From: Dehalococcoidia bacterium
GTDB lineage: Bacteria; Chloroflexota; Dehalococcoidia; Lucifugimonadales; UBA3495
DNA length: 64,000 nt
Assembly: GCA_965201145.1 (NCBI GenBank)
Contig: CBDAVT010000002.1
Location: 841,084-905,083, forward strand
Reading direction: 5' to 3'
The notes below the pieces were generated by a model. That model was not told where the DNA came from, did no database searches, and saw nothing but the letters and a program-made list of their open reading frames with translations. Each line of letters opens with the position of its first letter. Position 1 is the stretch's first letter. Shown here in pieces: positions 2 through 63,544 of the stretch. A program made the translations under genes and the position numbers.

Positions 2-925
2 GTGGACGGCGAGGTAAATAATCCACTCAGCCTCTCCTTTGACGAAATCCTGTCCCTGCCCCAGCGCCGTTTTCAGGTTACTTTCGAATGCTGCGGCAAC
101 AGCCCGGTGCCCGACTACTGGGCCAAAGCCACTCGCACCGGCTCGGTAATGGAAATGATTAAAGGACACGGCATTATGGGCAACGCCGAGTGGGCCGGGG
201 TGTCCCTGGCCGACGTGCTGGCTAAAGCCGGCGTCAAAGACTCGGCGGTGGAGGTAATGTTCGAGGGCGCCGACCACGGGCCCGATGAAACCGTGGGAGA
301 CCCGCCCGATGTAACCTATGAGCGCAGCCTGCCCCTGGCCAAGACGGTCCATCCCGATACCTTGCTAGCCTACGAGATGAACGGGGAACGACTACCGATG
401 AATCACGGCTTTCCGCTGCGCCTGCTGGTGCCGGGCTGGTACGGTATGACTTCGGTAAAGTGGCTGGTGGGCATCCATGTCCTGAATCACGAGTTCAAGG
501 GCTTCTACCAGACGGAACGGTATATGACGCAAAACGGGCCGGACAGCCCCGAGTATTACACCTACCATACCAAGATGAAGGTGAAGTCCATCATCACCAA
601 CCCGGCTCCCGGCGAGGTTATCCCGACCGGCGGCTATACCCTGGCCGGCGCCGCCTGGTCCGGAGAGGAAGATGTGGTGCGGGTGGAAATCAGCGCCGAC
701 GGCGGCAATACCTGGGATCTGGCGACTATCGCTCCCCGCAGCAGTTCCTATTCCTGGTATCGCTGGCAGTACCAGTGGCGACCGGCCGGGCCGGGCCGCT
801 ATACCCTGATGTCCCGCGCTACCAATAATCTAGGCGAAACCCAGCCTATGGAATTTCCTAACCAGTGGGATGGCCGGGGTTACGGCAACAATATGGTGTT
901 TCCGGTGGAGGTACAGGTACGGTAA
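2..925 (+). CDS. Sulfite oxidase-family molybdopterin oxidoreductase (5' partial)
   Basis: ORF is open to the window edge. Has a Mo-pterin binding region (TFECCGN..., GFPLRLLVPGWYGMTSVKW) followed by an Ig-like Moco dimerisation region (GYTLAGAAWSGEEDVVRVEISADGGNTW). Confidence 0.8.
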   Translation: MDGEVNNPLSLSFDEILSLPQRRFQVTFECCGNSPVPDYWAKATRTGSVMEMIKGHGIMGNAEWAGVSLADVLAKAGVKDSAVEVMFEGADHGPDETVGDPPDVTYERSLPLAKTVHPDTLLAYEMNGERLPMNHGFPLRLLVPGWYGMTSVKWLVGIHVLNHEFKGFYQTERYMTQNGPDSPEYYTYHTKMKVKSIITNPAPGEVIPTGGYTLAGAAWSGEEDVVRVEISADGGNTWDLATIAPRSSSYSWYRWQYQWRPAGPGRYTLMSRATNNLGETQPMEFPNQWDGRGYGNNMVFPVEVQVR

Positions 926-997
926 ATTCTACCTTCTCACCGGAGGGAAAATCAGGAATCAGCCGCAGCTGAAGCCCAAAAGGGCAGCGGGGGAGAA

Positions 998-1750
998 ATG
1001 CTGAAATCCCTGCGGGACAGCGTAATCAGCAGATTGGGCGATACCGACCGGCAGAGTCTTCGTCAGATTGTCGCCGCCATTAAGCAAGCCCGGGGCGGCA
1101 GCCCGGCACCGGCGTCCGGTGGCCGGATTACGGCGCGGGAACTGCTGGCCGAGTGGAGCAAAGACCTGCCGGCGGACGTCAACGCCGCTCTGGAAGCCAT
1201 CCTGACCCGGGATGAGAGTGGCCCCAGAGTTGGCGAGTTGGCTCCCGATTTTTCCCTCCGGCGGCTCGGCGCCACGGAGCGGGTTCGCCTGTCCGACTTC
1301 AAGGGCCAGCGGCCGATAGCTCTCGCTTTCGGCAGTTACACTTGACCGCCCTTCCGCGCTCAGGCTGAGCGCATGACCCAAATCTACCGGCAGTATCGAG
1401 ACCGGGTAGAATTTTTCGTCGTTTATATCCAGGAGGCTCACCCCACGGACGGATGGCAGACCGACAGCAACATCCGGGACGGCGTCCTGTTCCGCCAGCA
1501 TCAAAGCTATGACGAAAGGCAGGAAGTGGCCCGGACTTGCAGCCTGGACCTGCACATCGATATGCCGATAATCATCGAAGAGATGGACAATGTCATTGAC
1601 GAGTCCTACGGCGCCGCCCCGGAGCGCCTTTACCTGGTCGGCCGCGACGGCCGAATTGCCTACCACGGCGGGGCCGGCCCGCACTTCTTTGACCTGGATG
1701 AATGGGAAATGGCTATCGAGGCTTGCGTCGGCGTCGGGTCCCGGGGCTGA
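998..1750 (+). CDS. Iodothyronine deiodinase-like thioredoxin-fold selenoprotein (in-frame UGA = Sec at 1343..1345)
   Basis: ORFs 998..1345 and 1373..1750 share a frame and are separated only by TGA. The joined sequence reads ...RPIALAFGSYT-U-PPFRAQ...VEFFVVYIQEAHPTDGWQ...ERLYLVGRDGRIAYHGGAGP. This matches the deiodinase motifs FGSxTUP(P/S)F, YIxEAHxxDGW and ERLY. Confidence 0.8.
1356..1372 (+). promoter_or_regulatory. Candidate bacterial SECIS hairpin
   Basis: Perfect inverted repeat GCGCTCA-GGC-TGAGCGC begins 10 nt after the UGA. Its G-containing apical loop lies about 21-23 nt from the U of UGA, the geometry expected for a bacterial SECIS. Confidence 0.55.
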
Positions 1751-1782
1751 ATTCCCAACCACCGAACCGATGGAGTAGAAAC

Positions 1783-2457
1783 TTGACTGAACTTATCGAT
1801 TTGACCCTGACTTTGGGCAGCGACCGGGTGGCGCCGGTGCCGGGACTGATTGGCGTATGCACCTCTCCCCTGCACACCCACGAAACCCACGCTCGCTCCA
1901 ATACCAAATTGACGCTGGCAACTCACATCGGCACCCATGTGGATGCGCCCTATCACTTCCACGCCGACGGCGTTACTGTGGAGAATATGCCCTTGAACCG
2001 TTATATGGGGCCGGCGCTCCTGCTGGACTTGCGCCCGGTAGCCGAAAGCCTGACCCCCTTGTCGGTATCTCAACTGCAGCAAGCCGGCGGCGTTCCCGGC
2101 GCAGTCAAGGATGCGATTGTAGTTCTGTTTACCGGATGGGCGGCGGCCGAGTCCGGCGGCGCCCGCTTTTATTCCCAGGGGCCTTACCTGAGCAATGAGG
2201 GAGCGGCTTACCTGGCCGATAACGAGGTCAACGCCGTGGCGGTGGACTTTCCGATCGACAAACATCCGCCTACCCCCGAGTCTTCCATCCACGACTTCCC
2301 CGTGCACCGTTTGCTGCTGGGACGCGGGGTTCCCTTAATCGAAAATCTGGTCAACCTGGACCAATTAGTCGGTCGGGATTTCGAGCTGTGGGCCCTGCCC
2401 ATCAAGCTCAAGGACGGGGATGGCGCCGCAGCGCGAGCCGTGGCCCGGATTTTGTAG
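1783..2457 (+). CDS. Cyclase family protein (kynurenine formamidase-like)
   Basis: Has the HIGTHVDAPYHF motif (HxGTHxDxPxH). A TTG start at 1783 gives MTELIDLTL; the start is uncertain. Confidence 0.7.
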   Translation: MTELIDLTLTLGSDRVAPVPGLIGVCTSPLHTHETHARSNTKLTLATHIGTHVDAPYHFHADGVTVENMPLNRYMGPALLLDLRPVAESLTPLSVSQLQQAGGVPGAVKDAIVVLFTGWAAAESGGARFYSQGPYLSNEGAAYLADNEVNAVAVDFPIDKHPPTPESSIHDFPVHRLLLGRGVPLIENLVNLDQLVGRDFELWALPIKLKDGDGAAARAVARIL

Positions 2458-2473: not shown

Positions 2474-3130
2474 ATGACCGTTGCCGCCAATCCGCCGCCC
2501 ATCCTGCTGGCTACCGGCAATCCGGCCAAGCAGCAGACCCTGCGTGCGCTGCTGGAAGATTTGCCCCTGACCCCGGTTACTCCCGCCGACCTGGGGCTGA
2601 AGGCCGACCCGGCTGAAACCGGCCAAACCCATACCGCCATCGCCGTAGAAAAAGCGGTTGCCTGGTCGCAGCTGGCCGGGATGCCGGCTATCGCCTCTGA
2701 TGGCGGCCTGGTAGTTCCGTCGCTGGGGACTAACTGGGAAAGCCGCTATACCCATCGCTTTGCCGGGCCGGCTGCCGATGATACAGAACGCCGGCGCCGC
2801 CTGCTGGAACTGTTGGAACCCTTGCCAGCCGCCGGCCGGGCAGCTTCCTGGATCGAAGCGCTGGCCGTAGCCGACCGGGGCCGTCCGCTCCAGTCTTGGG
2901 AACTGACGGGCGGACAAGGAGTTATTGCCCGCAGTCCGGAACCCGGCCCGCACCCAGAGGGGTTCTGGGTTTTCCCTCTGTGGTACTTTCCCGACCTGGG
3001 CAAGTATTATAACCAACTGACCGAAGGGGAACGGGAAGCGCTGGGCGACCATTGGGCGCGCCTCAAAATACTGGTACAGAGTTATTTTACCGAAGAGTTC
3101 TCCGCCCGGCTGCCCGGCTCAAACGGGTGA
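2474..3130 (+). CDS. HAM1/RdgB-like non-canonical purine NTP pyrophosphatase (divergent)
   Basis: N-terminal ILLATGNPAKQ and ASDGGLVV resemble the ITPase motifs ATGNxxK and DSGL. The C-terminal half is not recognised. Confidence 0.5.
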   Translation: MTVAANPPPILLATGNPAKQQTLRALLEDLPLTPVTPADLGLKADPAETGQTHTAIAVEKAVAWSQLAGMPAIASDGGLVVPSLGTNWESRYTHRFAGPAADDTERRRRLLELLEPLPAAGRAASWIEALAVADRGRPLQSWELTGGQGVIARSPEPGPHPEGFWVFPLWYFPDLGKYYNQLTEGEREALGDHWARLKILVQSYFTEEFSARLPGSNG

Positions 3131-3226
3131 TTTAACCACCTTGATGGGATACAATAGATTCCGAAAATCGCAAACGCAGGCGCCGTACCATCGGCAAATT
3201 GTTCGCCTGTTACTGGAGCAGCTACA

Positions 3227-4162
3227 TTGACCACCGCCGCAGCTCAACCTACCTCCATTGACCAGGTTCAGAATCTGCTAAGAGACCAGGAGTACGTCGC
3301 CGACCGGGGTTTGGCCGTAGCCATTTATCTGGCTTTGACCTTGCAGCGTCCCCTGTTTCTGGAGGGTGAAGCTGGCGTCGGCAAGACCGAGATTGCCCGC
3401 TCGCTGGCCCGGGGGTTGGATACCGAGCTAATCCGGTTGCAGTGCTACGAAGGGCTGGACGTGAACCACGCCGTTTACGAGTGGAACCATACTCGCCAGA
3501 TGCTGGAAATTCGACTGCTGGAGTCCGGGGGGAACCTGGACCGGGCCGCCGCTACCGATGACCTCTTCAGCGAGCGCTTCCTGATTAAGCGGCCCCTGCT
3601 CCAGGCTATAGACGAGAGTCGGGACCAGTCGCCGGTGCTGCTGATTGACGAACTGGACCGGGCTGATGAAGAATTTGAAGGTTTTCTGCTGGAAATGCTG
3701 GCTGACTTCCAGATTACTATCCCGGAATTGGGTTCCTTTCGGGCCGCCCATCCACCCATCGTCATCATCACCTCCAACCGAACTCGAGAAATTCACGACG
3801 CCCTGAAGCGCCGCTGCCTCTACTACTGGATTGACTATCCTGACTACCAAAAGGAACTGCAAATCGTCAGTGCCAGGCTGCCCCAGGCTCCCCGGCGACT
3901 GGCCCAGCAGGTAACCGGCTTCATTCAGGAACTGCGGGAGACGGAGCTTTACAAAATACCCGGCGTTTCCGAAACTATCGACTGGACCGCCGCTCTGCTG
4001 GCCCTCAACCAGACCGAGCTGGACGCCCAGGTAATCGACGATACACTGGGCATAATGCTGAAGTACCAGGACGATATCGAGCTGGTCCGGGGCGAGCCGG
4101 TGCGCAGCATCCTGGAGCGTTCCCTGAATCGGGGACCACGTCGGGGCGGACGGCGCGGCTGA
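3227..4162 (+). CDS. MoxR-family AAA+ ATPase (CoxD-like)
   Basis: Walker A EGEAGVGKTE and Walker B LLIDELDRA. Size and layout fit the MoxR family; TTG start. Confidence 0.85.
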   Translation: MTTAAAQPTSIDQVQNLLRDQEYVADRGLAVAIYLALTLQRPLFLEGEAGVGKTEIARSLARGLDTELIRLQCYEGLDVNHAVYEWNHTRQMLEIRLLESGGNLDRAAATDDLFSERFLIKRPLLQAIDESRDQSPVLLIDELDRADEEFEGFLLEMLADFQITIPELGSFRAAHPPIVIITSNRTREIHDALKRRCLYYWIDYPDYQKELQIVSARLPQAPRRLAQQVTGFIQELRETELYKIPGVSETIDWTAALLALNQTELDAQVIDDTLGIMLKYQDDIELVRGEPVRSILERSLNRGPRRGGRRG

Positions 4163-60212: not shown

Positions 60213-61394
60213 ATGACTATGGAATCGGCCAGTTACGACCTGCTGCTGAAGGGGGGCACTCTGCTGGACCCGGGCCAGGGAATCCACGACCGCCGGGATA
60301 TTGCTTTCCGGGATGGCGCGGTAGCCGCCGTCGCCGAGAACATCCCTCCGGAGCCGGCGGCCCAGGTAGTAGATATAGCCGGCAAGTTGGCCACACCGGG
60401 CCTGATTGACCTGCACGGCCACTTTTATCACGGCGGTACGGGCAGCGCCGTCCACGCCGACCAGAATTGTCTATCCGCCGGAGTGACTACCGGCATTGAC
60501 GCCGGCAGCTCCGGCTTCCTGAACCTGGGAGCGATGCGAGACTACGTTTTCCCGGCCCACCGCACCCGGCTGCTCGCCTTTCTCCACATCGGCAGTGTAG
60601 GTCTGGCCGCCAACCGGGTACTGGGCGGCGGCTTGCAGGACCTGCGCATCATCGACGTGGACCGCACCGCCGCTGCCGTTAAAGACAATCCCGGCTTTCT
60701 CTTTGGAATCAAGGTGCGGATGGAGCTTAATGCCGTGGCCTACTGGAATGCCGCCGAAGCTATGCGCCTGGCCCGGGCCGCCGCCGACCAGTCGGGCAGT
60801 CGGCTGATGGTGCACGTTAGCGGTACGCCGATACCCCTGCCCCAGGTTCTGGACTTTATGGGCCCCGGGGACATTTGCACCCACGCCTTCAACGGCAACC
60901 ATGAAGGCATCCTCGACCGGCAAGACCGAATCCGACCGGAGGTGCAGGCCGCCGCGGAACGGGGCGTCATAATGGACCTGGGCCACGCCGGGGTCCACTG
61001 TGATGTGGAAGTAGCCCGGGCCGCCATCGCCCAGGGTATGCCGCCGGACACCATCAGCACCGATATTCACCTGCCCCCGCCCGGGCGTCGGGTCTATTTG
61101 ATGAACGACCTGGTCAGCAAGTTCCACGCCCTGGGAATGCCTTTGGCCGATGCCGTGGCCGCCAGCACCTGCCGACCAGCCCAGGTTCTGGGCCTGCAAG
61201 ACAATTTGGGTTCCCTGGCGCCGGGGATGTGCGGCGATGCGGCGGTCTATGACCTGCGTGAAGGCCGGTTTGTGTGGCACGATATGGCGCGCAACAAGGT
61301 GGAGGGCAAAGTTCGGCTGGATACTTTCCTGACGGTGCGAAATGGCGGCATTGTCTGGCGGGAGGGCAAGCTGACCGAGATGGGGCCGTGCTGA
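60213..61394 (+). CDS. Amidohydrolase-family metallohydrolase (dihydroorotase/deacetylase-like)
   Basis: PGLIDLHGHFYHGG metal-binding motif, MVHVSG, DLGHAG, STDIH. Confidence 0.75.
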   Translation: MTMESASYDLLLKGGTLLDPGQGIHDRRDIAFRDGAVAAVAENIPPEPAAQVVDIAGKLATPGLIDLHGHFYHGGTGSAVHADQNCLSAGVTTGIDAGSSGFLNLGAMRDYVFPAHRTRLLAFLHIGSVGLAANRVLGGGLQDLRIIDVDRTAAAVKDNPGFLFGIKVRMELNAVAYWNAAEAMRLARAAADQSGSRLMVHVSGTPIPLPQVLDFMGPGDICTHAFNGNHEGILDRQDRIRPEVQAAAERGVIMDLGHAGVHCDVEVARAAIAQGMPPDTISTDIHLPPPGRRVYLMNDLVSKFHALGMPLADAVAASTCRPAQVLGLQDNLGSLAPGMCGDAAVYDLREGRFVWHDMARNKVEGKVRLDTFLTVRNGGIVWREGKLTEMGPC

Positions 61395-63544
61395 ACTTCC
61401 GAACCTGGGCAATCACACTTGTCGTTGCCCTTCTGCTGACTGCGTTGGCAGCGTGCCGCCAGGCCGATGCGCCGGAGCCAGCAGCGCCGACGAACGCTGC
61501 GACCGGCTCCGGCTCAACCGCAGCTGCCGCTGACCCAATGGTCGCGCCGGAAACGGAAGCCCTGTCCCCGGTCTCTTCCGGCGTGGCGGCCATCGCTATT
61601 GCCGAGGCGACTGCCGCCGCGCCCCGGTCTGCCCCCGACCCGTCGGTTTCTGCGCCATCAACCACCTCCGCGGCGCCGGGCACGACAAATACGCCAGCTG
61701 CCCCGGAATTTCCGACCGCCGGCGCCGTATCCGGGGATACCCTGATTCAGCTAATCGACCCTCTGGATGAGCCTGAATTTTACTGCGTGGATATTCGCGG
61801 CTTCGGCAGCAGCTTGGAAACCGGGAGTTCTCTTCAGGCGCATACTTGCAAACCGGGAGCGGCCGACAAGTTGTTCCGGTTCAACTATCCCGGCCCCGGT
61901 CAGTTTCAAATGCCGGCCTATGAACTTTGTCTGGAAGCCGAAGCCGGATTGGCCTATACCCGGGACTGCACCGGCGAATTAGTCCAGCAGTTTAAGCATG
62001 GCGCTGACGGAACGATTCGTACCGCCGCCGGTAATAGCTGCCTGTCGGTGGATCCGAGCGAAGGCGAACCGACCGGGGGACGGTCGCACCTGCGCCGGGA
62101 CTTGCAGTTCCTACCCTGCGCCGCGGCGGAACGCCAACTGTCTCGTTGGTCGCTGCCGGGGGAAAATCCCGATTCCGCCCCGGGGCCGGCAACCCGGCTG
62201 ATGCACGAGGCCCTGGATTCGGCGCTGACCGGCAACCCCTGGAAAATAGAAAGTATGGGAGCCAACGGCGACCCGGCCTATATCCCCGTGCTGGTTGAGA
62301 TGATGCGCTTCCCCTGGGCGCGAATTAACCGGGGAGTAGAGGAAGCGATTTTTGAGGCCCTGGACCGGATTGTCGAACAAAACCCGGGCCTCGCCAAAGC
62401 CGATTTCGGGACTTTGCATGATGAATGGTTCCAGTGGGTTATCTGGATAAACCGGAATCCGGAAGTTTGGCCGCCCCCCGGATTTGCCGCCTGGAAGGGG
62501 CGGCTGTATGCCGAGCTGGTGGACCCGGAAATGGGGTCCTTCCTATATGACGGAATCAGGAGCGCCATCCGCATTGAAGAGATAGTCTGGGGCGGAGTCA
62601 GGAAGGACGGTATCCCGGACTTGACCGATGCCCCGGTAATCGCTGCTGCCGAGGCCGACTACCTGGAGCCGGGGGGCCGGGTATTTGGCGTCTCTTTCAA
62701 CGGCGAACACCGCGCTTACCCCCACCGTATCGTCAATGCCCACGAAATGGCTAATGACGTAGTGGGTGGGGTGCCTTTTGCTTTGGCCTATTGAACTCTC
62801 TGCGGCGCGGGAATCGTGTATTCCACCGACATTGACGGGGAACGGGTCGAGTTCGGCACTTCGGGAATGCTGTACCGCAGCAACAAGCTGATGTACGACC
62901 GAAAGACCAATACCCTCTGGAATCAGTTTACCGGCGTGCCGGCGGCGGGGCCTTTGGCGGGAACTGACTTCCGGCTGGAATTGCTGCCGGTAGTTACCAC
63001 AACCTGGGGCCAATGGGTCAAGGCCCACCCGGATACCACGGTGTTGGCCCGGGAGACAGGTATTTATCCGGGCCGCTTCTATAGTTCCGAGTGGGACTCC
63101 CGCTCGATATACTTCCACTACCGGGAGAGCGCGGCCACTATGTTTCCAGTGGGGGAAACCAGCGATGTCCTGTCCCTCAAAGGGCAGGTAATCGGCCTGC
63201 GCATTAACGGCGAGGCGAAGGCTTACCCGCTGGAAGAGTTAAGCGGGCAGCCGGTGGTCAATGATGAGCTGGGCGGCCAGCCGCTGGTAGTGGTTACCGC
63301 CGGGCCGCTGGGCAGCCGCGCCTATGAACGGGGTGAAGAAACGTTCCTTTTGGAGGAAGGCGGCGCATCCGACACTACCCTCCTTACCGACAGCGCGGGC
63401 AAGCTGTGGCGAGTGGAAGAAGCCGCCCTGGTTCAGGAAGACGACCCGGCGCTGCGCTTTCCCCGCATACCCAGCCACAACGCCTACTGGTTCGGCTGGC
63501 ACTCCTTCTACCCGGAAACCGGGGTTTACCGGGCTGGGGAATGA
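61388..63544 (+). CDS. Lipoprotein with beta-trefoil-like region and DUF3179 domain; candidate selenoprotein (in-frame UGA at 62792..62794)
   Basis: ORFs 61274..62794 and 62816..63544 share one frame, separated by TGA. The read-through gives VPFALAY-U-TLCGAGIVY...FGTSGMLYRSNKLMYDRKTNTLWNQ, matching the DUF3179 YCPLC...FG.SG.L...NL.MYDR.T.S.W motif with Sec at the first Cys. N-terminal lipobox LLLTALAAC. Start GTG 61388 overlaps the upstream stop. Confidence 0.65.
62810..62824 (+). promoter_or_regulatory. Weak candidate SECIS-like hairpin
   Basis: 5-bp stem GGAAT/ATTCC with loop CGUGU, located 23-27 nt from the U of UGA. Much weaker than the hairpin at 1356..1372. Confidence 0.25.

Follow-up and report, generated by a model that had tools for sequence, protein, structure and literature searches.

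The 64,000-nt stretch of DNA analysed here (hereafter the window, C2:841084-905083) is part of a 3.09-Mb genome, and contains two open reading frames (998-1345 and 1373-1750) which lie in the same frame and are separated by a single TGA codon (Table 1). Translation with TGA read as U gives one product of 250 residues with the sequences FGSYT-U-PPF, VVYIQEAHPTDGW and ERLYLVGRDGRIAYHGGAGP, and a perfect 7-bp hairpin, in which GCGCTCA (1356-1362) pairs with TGAGCGC (1366-1372) around a GGC loop, starts 10 nt past the TGA. The interrupted frame, the three sequences in the fused product and the hairpin had all been described in a first-pass annotation of this DNA, and each was confirmed at the same positions. 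The tblastn matches of relatives begin at residue 1 of the 250-residue product, and the gene is present as a single copy in the host genome. The TGA that terminates the frame (1748-1750) was also inspected, and no SECIS-type hairpin was found after it. An antisense ORF of 267 codons (959-1762, minus strand) covers the whole gene and displayed apparent tblastn conservation in 47 loci, but was rejected as a gene, as it mirrors the conserved, GC-rich sense frame.

Table 1. Features of the locus, of loci from relatives and of the selenocysteine machinery. Positions are those of the window, unless preceded by a contig (C) or locus (L) identifier.
Feature	Position	Strand	Details or basis
Sulfite-oxidase-type Mo-oxidoreductase gene	2-925		upstream neighbour
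Shine-Dalgarno-like run GGGGAG	990-995	+	ahead of ATG 998
Complete CDS, predicted deiodinase-like selenoprotein	998-1750	+	250 codons plus TGA terminator, ATG start 998
N-terminal extension, residues 1-72	998-1213	+	model helices 2-11, 15-33, 46-56, 59-72
Catalytic thioredoxin-fold/deiodinase domain, residues 73-241	1214-1720	+	Pfam, phmmer, Foldseek
Ser113-Tyr114-Thr115	1334-1342	+	align to FGS-x-T of Dio2/Dio3
UGA codon, putative Sec116 in FGSYT-U-PPF	1343-1345	+	TGA column in relatives, Cys in distant homologues
Spacer UGA to hairpin, 10 nt	1346-1355	+	sequence
Putative bacterial SECIS hairpin	1356-1372	+	stem 1356-1362/1366-1372, apical loop GGC 1363-1365
Edge of Dio-specific insertion, YIQEAHPTDGW (Tyr143, Glu146, His148, Trp153)	1424-1456	+	Dio3 alignment
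His168, distal relay histidine	1499-1501	+	alignment; equals Dio3 His219 / Dio2 His182
Cys181, candidate resolving cysteine	1538-1540	+	Cys in 76/78 Sec forms
Terminating TGA	1748-1750	+	frame translation
Cyclase-family gene	1783-2457	+	33 nt past the stop codon
DLH-family neighbours	L021 4859-5620; L022 4957-5880; L030/31/33/34/36/37 about 3040-3830
DLH-family neighbours, further	L099 3213-3695; L047 661-1467
selA	C2:380934-382286		537 bits, above curated cut-off
selB	C2:945000-946856		343 bits, above curated cut-off
selD (locus L009)	C3:43097-44020		392 bits, above curated cut-off
tRNA-Sec, anticodon TCA	C2:351617-351713		Aragorn; Rfam 66 bits

The genes flanking this frame encode the Mo-oxidoreductase, a cupin, a rhodanese-repeat protein, the cyclase-family protein, a Ham1-family protein (located downstream) and MoxR/VWA proteins. 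A functional operon was considered from the synteny of the flanking genes and rejected, since this gene order is common only to five very close relatives and thus reflects genome collinearity; the neighbours give no consistent functional clue. For the cyclase-family gene, the most likely start is TTG 1783, preceded by GGAG (1772-1775), and not ATG 1702, which would overlap the upstream frame; the homologues of this gene align from TTG 1783 onward only. Across the 80 best genome-assembly loci of relatives, just one type of neighbour recurs in different clades, a gene of the dienelactone hydrolase family (Pfam DLH, with matches down to 3.5e-52). It adjoins the Sec gene in 10/80 loci: on the downstream side in one sub-clade of Dehalococcoidia, on the upstream side in a second one, and in two Pseudomonadota as well. 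A gene of the DLH family is absent from the 64-kb window, and a functional link between the DLH-family and deiodinase-like proteins is possible, as a lead only from gene adjacency. In a single further case, likewise a lead only, a Cys-form gene (P0030; L104, 3001-3723) is found upstream of a PAP2/VCPO_2nd gene of the vanadium haloperoxidase type (L104, 4856-6394), at a distance of 1.1 kb.

The fused product matches the Pfam family PF00837 (T4_deiodinase) over residues 69-241, extending across the TGA, at 1.5e-36 (126.4 bits versus a gathering cut-off of 27), with weaker matches to AhpC-TSA and Redoxin. Mouse Dio3 (4TR3, 1.1e-25) and mouse Dio2 (9H48, 9.8e-22) were the sole sequence matches when the PDB was searched with phmmer. 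An AlphaFold model based on 98 homologues (pLDDT 90.8, pTM 0.86) has a thioredoxin/peroxiredoxin-type fold, and the same two structures are its best Foldseek matches (4TR3 with E 3e-14 and a TM-score on target of 0.79, 9H48 with 0.81; 30-34% identity), followed by ResA/TlpA-type thiol-disulfide oxidoreductases and the 1-Cys peroxiredoxin AhpE. The catalytic domain also matches the NCBIfam model NF038285 (deiodinase_rel) at profile positions 173-340 of 347 (3.6e-57), with a score of 194.4 bits that lies below the curated cut-off of 250 and with the first ~170 profile positions unmatched; as only the C-terminal half is matched, the N-terminal architecture differs from that of the NF038285 model. 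In the N-terminal extension (residues 1-72), searches for a Pfam match, a hydrophobic anchor or a signal peptide gave none, and its helices are polar. The extension is common only to the nearest clade, consisting of 21 rows (20 Sec forms and one Cys form) with the Sec forms originating from Dehalococcoidia/SAR202 MAGs and Entotheonella, and residues 1-24x of the query were matched in loci L021-L038 and L079 only.

Within the catalytic domain, the deiodinase motifs FGSxTUP(P/S)F and YIxEAHxxDGW, to which the product had initially been assigned, are present, and their residues align to those of Dio2 and Dio3. Ser113 and Thr115 are invariant in the 78 Sec forms, as are Tyr143, Glu146, His148 and Arg210 (each 78/78), with Trp153 kept in 76/78, and in the alignment of 98 rows Tyr143 and Glu146 are found in 98/98 and His148 in 96/98. 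The distal His168 is a histidine in 19/20 members of its own clade and a proline in most other bacterial forms. The peroxiredoxin motif PxxxTxxC is absent from the protein sequence.

Among 5.8 billion proteins searched, 255 relatives were identified; the nearest of them comprise C-terminal halves of 138 aa, which start just past the TGA, an N-terminal half (P0071) with ...ALAFGSYT as its last residues, and products with a W called at the TGA. Twelve database relatives have a W at the TGA column, all of which are gene-caller products; none of the homologues has a genuine TGG/Trp at column 116, the W rows representing TGA misread by the gene caller. The expectation that standard annotation would split or truncate the gene is therefore borne out by the databases themselves. 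These halves in public gene calls, together with the presence of an ATG 27 nt past the TGA and with the fact that ORF calling using table 11 yields precisely this outcome, could be taken to indicate two genes, one for a 115-aa protein terminated by the TGA and one for a protein of 125 aa initiated at ATG 1373. However, one Pfam domain and one fold run across the junction, each product would be left with only half a thioredoxin fold, the conserved segment PPFRAQ is encoded in frame by the 27-nt gap between the ORFs, and Cys-form homologues are uninterrupted, which makes two separate genes hardly conceivable.

At column 116, 72 more distant database homologues have a Cys, and all of these are continuous through the motif; they include P0002 (245 aa, 60% identity), the nearest Cys form. 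In the best 80 genome-assembly loci, TGA is located at exactly the same codon in 79/80, and TGC in the remaining one. These loci are derived from about ten phyla in all, with sources including Chloroflexota, Acidobacteriota, Planctomycetota, Pseudomonadota, Actinomycetota, Armatimonadota, Myxococcota, Thermodesulfobacteriota, Poribacteria and Entotheonella. The family was matched in 22 of the 41 genomes covered from the same order, comprising 15/17 genomes of the genus (host included) and 5/8 other genera of the host's family, and it is rare outside that family; all 19 full matches contain exactly one TGA. A maximum-likelihood tree requires at least seven switches between Sec and Cys, and 13-14 most parsimoniously. 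A comparison with T4_deiodinase relatives at this column had been proposed at the outset, with a natural gene boundary in the homologues as the outcome that would speak against recoding; the column is TGA or Cys, and a boundary is absent, as the Cys forms are continuous and the Pfam domain spans the TGA. This pattern effectively excludes a natural gene boundary, and likewise an interruption caused by a nonsense lesion or by an error of assembly. A pseudogene interrupted by a chance TGA is also at odds with the occurrence of the codon in independent relatives from many phyla and in the same-order genomes, with the protein-level conservation of both halves, and with the co-varying hairpin that follows the TGA (see below), and we consider it extremely improbable.

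The hairpin following the UGA is of a kind that occurs by chance at a low rate, as a perfect 7-bp hairpin with a loop of 3-8 nt starting 8-20 nt downstream was found at 0.8% of window positions and after 6/869 TGA trinucleotides. For such a GC-rich stretch, the 58 nt following the UGA have an unremarkable folding energy (z = -0.15, with 68/200 shuffled sequences folding equally well), which hence is no evidence by itself. The single sequence is suggestive only, and the decisive evidence is comparative. We aligned, without gaps, the 42 nt from the UGA of the 24 sequences that were nearest by protein identity, and which were thus selected independently of structure. The stem cells were paired in 93.5% of cases, versus 18-55% when the 3′ arm was slid by 1-3 columns, and three of the seven stem pairs showed changes on both sides: pair 15-29 (CG in 16 sequences, UA in 7), pair 18-26 (UA in 13, CG in 5) and pair 16-28 (GC in 23, UA in one). 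This covariation score was matched by 0/500 shuffles, and the first G of the apical loop is invariant in the alignment. The pairing of the hairpin is thus maintained via compensatory changes in the nearest clade.

Using simple criteria, a bSECIS-like hairpin was detected in 65/79 Sec loci versus 11.6% of control codons of the same genes, with the criteria being failed by 14/79 Sec loci. Counted from the T of the TGA, the stem of the 65 passing relatives begins at 11-19 nt, most commonly at 13 as in the gene described here, and in other clades the hairpin is found in another register, moved by a few nucleotides. In four Cys-form genes, which are more distant than P0002, just 2-3 of the 7 pairs are left in register. 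An Rfam scan of positions 900-1900 with E-values up to 10 gave no SECIS family, and two chance miRNA matches only. The minimal SECIS of E. coli fdhF was reportedly reduced by Liu et al. in 1998 (reference 14 of PMC1088965) to a 17-nt upper stem-loop, located 11 nt after the UGA. The hairpin predicted here is likewise 17 nt long, follows the UGA after a spacer of 10 nt, has G residues in its apical loop and would, like the fdhF element, be read by SelB. It differs from the fdhF element in having a perfect stem with no bulged U, an unrelated sequence, and a loop of 3 nt (5 nt if the closing A-U pair opens).

All of the components for selenocysteine insertion that the first-pass annotation had proposed to look for (selA, selB, selD and tRNA-Sec) were found in the genome (Table 1). 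The selD gene has an in-frame UGA of its own at the canonical position SHCAG-U-AAK (SHCAG-U-AAKIS), with a GGACCUGG/CAGGUCC hairpin 22 nt on. A second gene in the window (approximately 61300-63540, plus strand) has an in-frame TGA (62792-62794) that joins frames of 497 and 249 codons and lies within ...FALAY-U-TLCG, a UxxC motif, with a GGAAU/AUUCC hairpin beginning 18 nt downstream. From its sequence, this probable second UGA-containing gene supports active use of Sec in the host genome.

In the host genome, 1011 frames stay open for 400 codons or more, and TGA is the terminator of 258 of them (26%); an alternative genetic code with TGA as Trp was rejected for this reason. The W called at the column in 12 database relatives might still suggest that the UGA is read as Trp or Cys, by near-cognate suppression or an altered code, instead of Sec. 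Such a reading is in conflict with the use of TGA as terminator, which includes the stop codon of the gene itself, with homologues that have Cys but never a genuine Trp, and with the full Sec machinery accompanied by a SECIS-type hairpin, and is in our opinion highly improbable.

Taken together, we propose with a probability of roughly 93% that positions 998-1750 form one gene, of which the UGA is decoded as Sec via SelB and the hairpin to give a soluble cytoplasmic, deiodinase-like protein with putative Sec116/Cys181 chemistry. The claim of a genuine Sec-decoding gene is thereby upheld by the conserved TGA column, the covarying hairpin and the full Sec machinery, and the actual insertion of Sec at codon 116, as deduced from these genomic data, is strongly supported. 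In the proposed mechanism, SelB carrying Sec-tRNA(Sec) would bind the 17-nt hairpin and deliver Sec to the ribosome, and the resulting soluble cytoplasmic protein of 250 residues would combine the thioredoxin/peroxiredoxin-type fold with the deiodinase-specific insertion and the helical N-terminal extension. The Ser113/Thr115/Tyr143/Glu146/His148/His168 relay may then activate the Sec116 selenolate for attack on an electrophilic atom of the substrate, giving an Se-X or Se-OH intermediate which Cys181 could resolve to a selenenylsulfide, with a thiol system such as thioredoxin as the putative reductant.

Bacterial selenoproteins of this type were known from metagenome surveys, as had been correctly stated in the first-pass annotation. 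A Sec-containing 'deiodinase-like protein' family (PF00837) was described from the Sargasso Sea in 2005 by Zhang, Fomenko and Gladyshev, comprising Sec as well as Cys forms and having SECIS elements of the bacterial type (PMC1088965), and the family is also included in prokaryotic selenoproteome reviews of 2022 and 2026 (PMC9312934, PMC13188914). The gene described here is a further member of this deiodinase-like selenoprotein family, and the find is therefore not new in kind. It shares with the 2005 family the PF00837 domain, the active-site Sec, the existence of Cys homologues, and a SECIS element right after the UGA with a G in a small apical loop. It differs in belonging to a soluble clade centred on Dehalococcoidia/SAR202, in which the proteins have the helical N-terminal extension of 72 residues and His168 as the distal relay residue. 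Both review tables (PMC9312934, PMC13188914) give UxxC as the redox motif of the family, whereas the gene described here and all 78 Sec forms have U-P-P-F/Y without a Cys at +3, the second conserved cysteine being Cys181, 65 residues downstream.

The animal deiodinases Dio1-3 (4TR3/4TR4 for Dio3, 9H48 for Dio2) have in common with the bacterial protein the FGSxTUPPF motif, the YIxEAHPxDGW insertion, the Ser/Thr/Tyr/Glu/His/His relay and the fold (TM-score ~0.8). Ser113, Thr115, Sec116 and Tyr143 correspond to Ser167, Thr169, Sec170 and Tyr197 of Dio3, and Glu146, His148, Trp153 and His168 to Glu200, His202, Trp207 and His219, so that the whole proposed proton relay is present; the role of Ser, Thr and the other residues in this relay was taken from the literature on Dio (PMC11592359), in which the residue names agree with our alignment numbering. 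There are also clear differences, as the animal enzymes have an N-terminal membrane anchor which the bacterial protein lacks, and their SECIS is a 3′-UTR element instead of a bacterial in-frame hairpin. Arg275 of Dio3, the proposed clamp of the hormone carboxylate, is replaced by Ala226 in a column that is variable across the bacterial family, Cys239 of Dio3 corresponds to Met189, and Cys181 aligns to Leu232 of Dio3. A special closeness of the His168-bearing clade to animal deiodinases was considered and rejected by the tree, in which the mouse Dio2/3 fragments are placed on a long branch outside all bacterial rows sampled.

The resolving role of Cys181 and the reductant are putative, as is any assignment of the substrate. 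The conservation of the deiodinase-specific insertion and relay argues for abstraction of a halogen from a phenolic compound, while the peroxiredoxin-like fold, Arg210 and the reasoning of the 2005 authors, who proposed a redox function since thyroid hormones are unexpected in bacteria (PMC1088965), point to a peroxide or to some other redox substrate. Judged on these features, a halogen on a phenolic compound, removed by reductive dehalogenation as in animal deiodinases and as suggested in the first-pass annotation, and a hydroperoxide would be equally plausible substrates, neither of them the probable one, with something else altogether nearly as plausible. A plain Se-dependent thiol peroxidase or thiol-disulfide oxidoreductase without dehalogenase activity is a realistic possibility, although less likely than not: it fits the AhpC-TSA and Redoxin matches in Pfam, the ResA/TlpA-type proteins and AhpE as next fold matches after Dio2 and Dio3, an arginine conserved as in peroxiredoxins, the candidate resolving cysteine and the redox function favoured in 2005 (PMC1088965), but leaves unaccounted for why the insertion is conserved together with every residue of the proton relay known from the animal dehalogenases, and the PxxxTxxC motif of peroxiredoxins is missing. 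In the literature searched, we found no functional test of any bacterial deiodinase-like member, and nothing relevant on a connection of these proteins with either sponge symbionts or dehalogenation.

A more specific and speculative proposal, which we consider rather unlikely, is that the soluble clade with the U-P-P-F motif, from marine and sponge-associated Dehalococcoidia/SAR202 as well as Entotheonella, functions as a cobalamin-independent, Se-dependent reductive dehalogenase, which would remove bromine or iodine from natural halophenolics and be recycled via Cys181 and thioredoxin. In some lineages, such an enzyme may act in partnership with the product of the adjoining dienelactone-hydrolase-family gene (10/80 loci).

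The gene provides a clear case of a selenoprotein that is split or truncated by standard gene calling, and as the nearest database entries are either halves or have a W at the UGA, the annotation of the host genome and of its relatives needs correcting. Knowledge of Sec decoding, and of the existence of the family, is unchanged by this find. What it adds to the family is a well-defined soluble clade with a helical N-terminal extension, a Dio relay of which no residue is missing, the distal histidine included, and Cys181. Being both soluble and small, this clade offers a convenient entry point for biochemistry. If the dehalogenase proposal were true, deiodinase chemistry would reach from animal endocrinology to bacterial organohalogen turnover.
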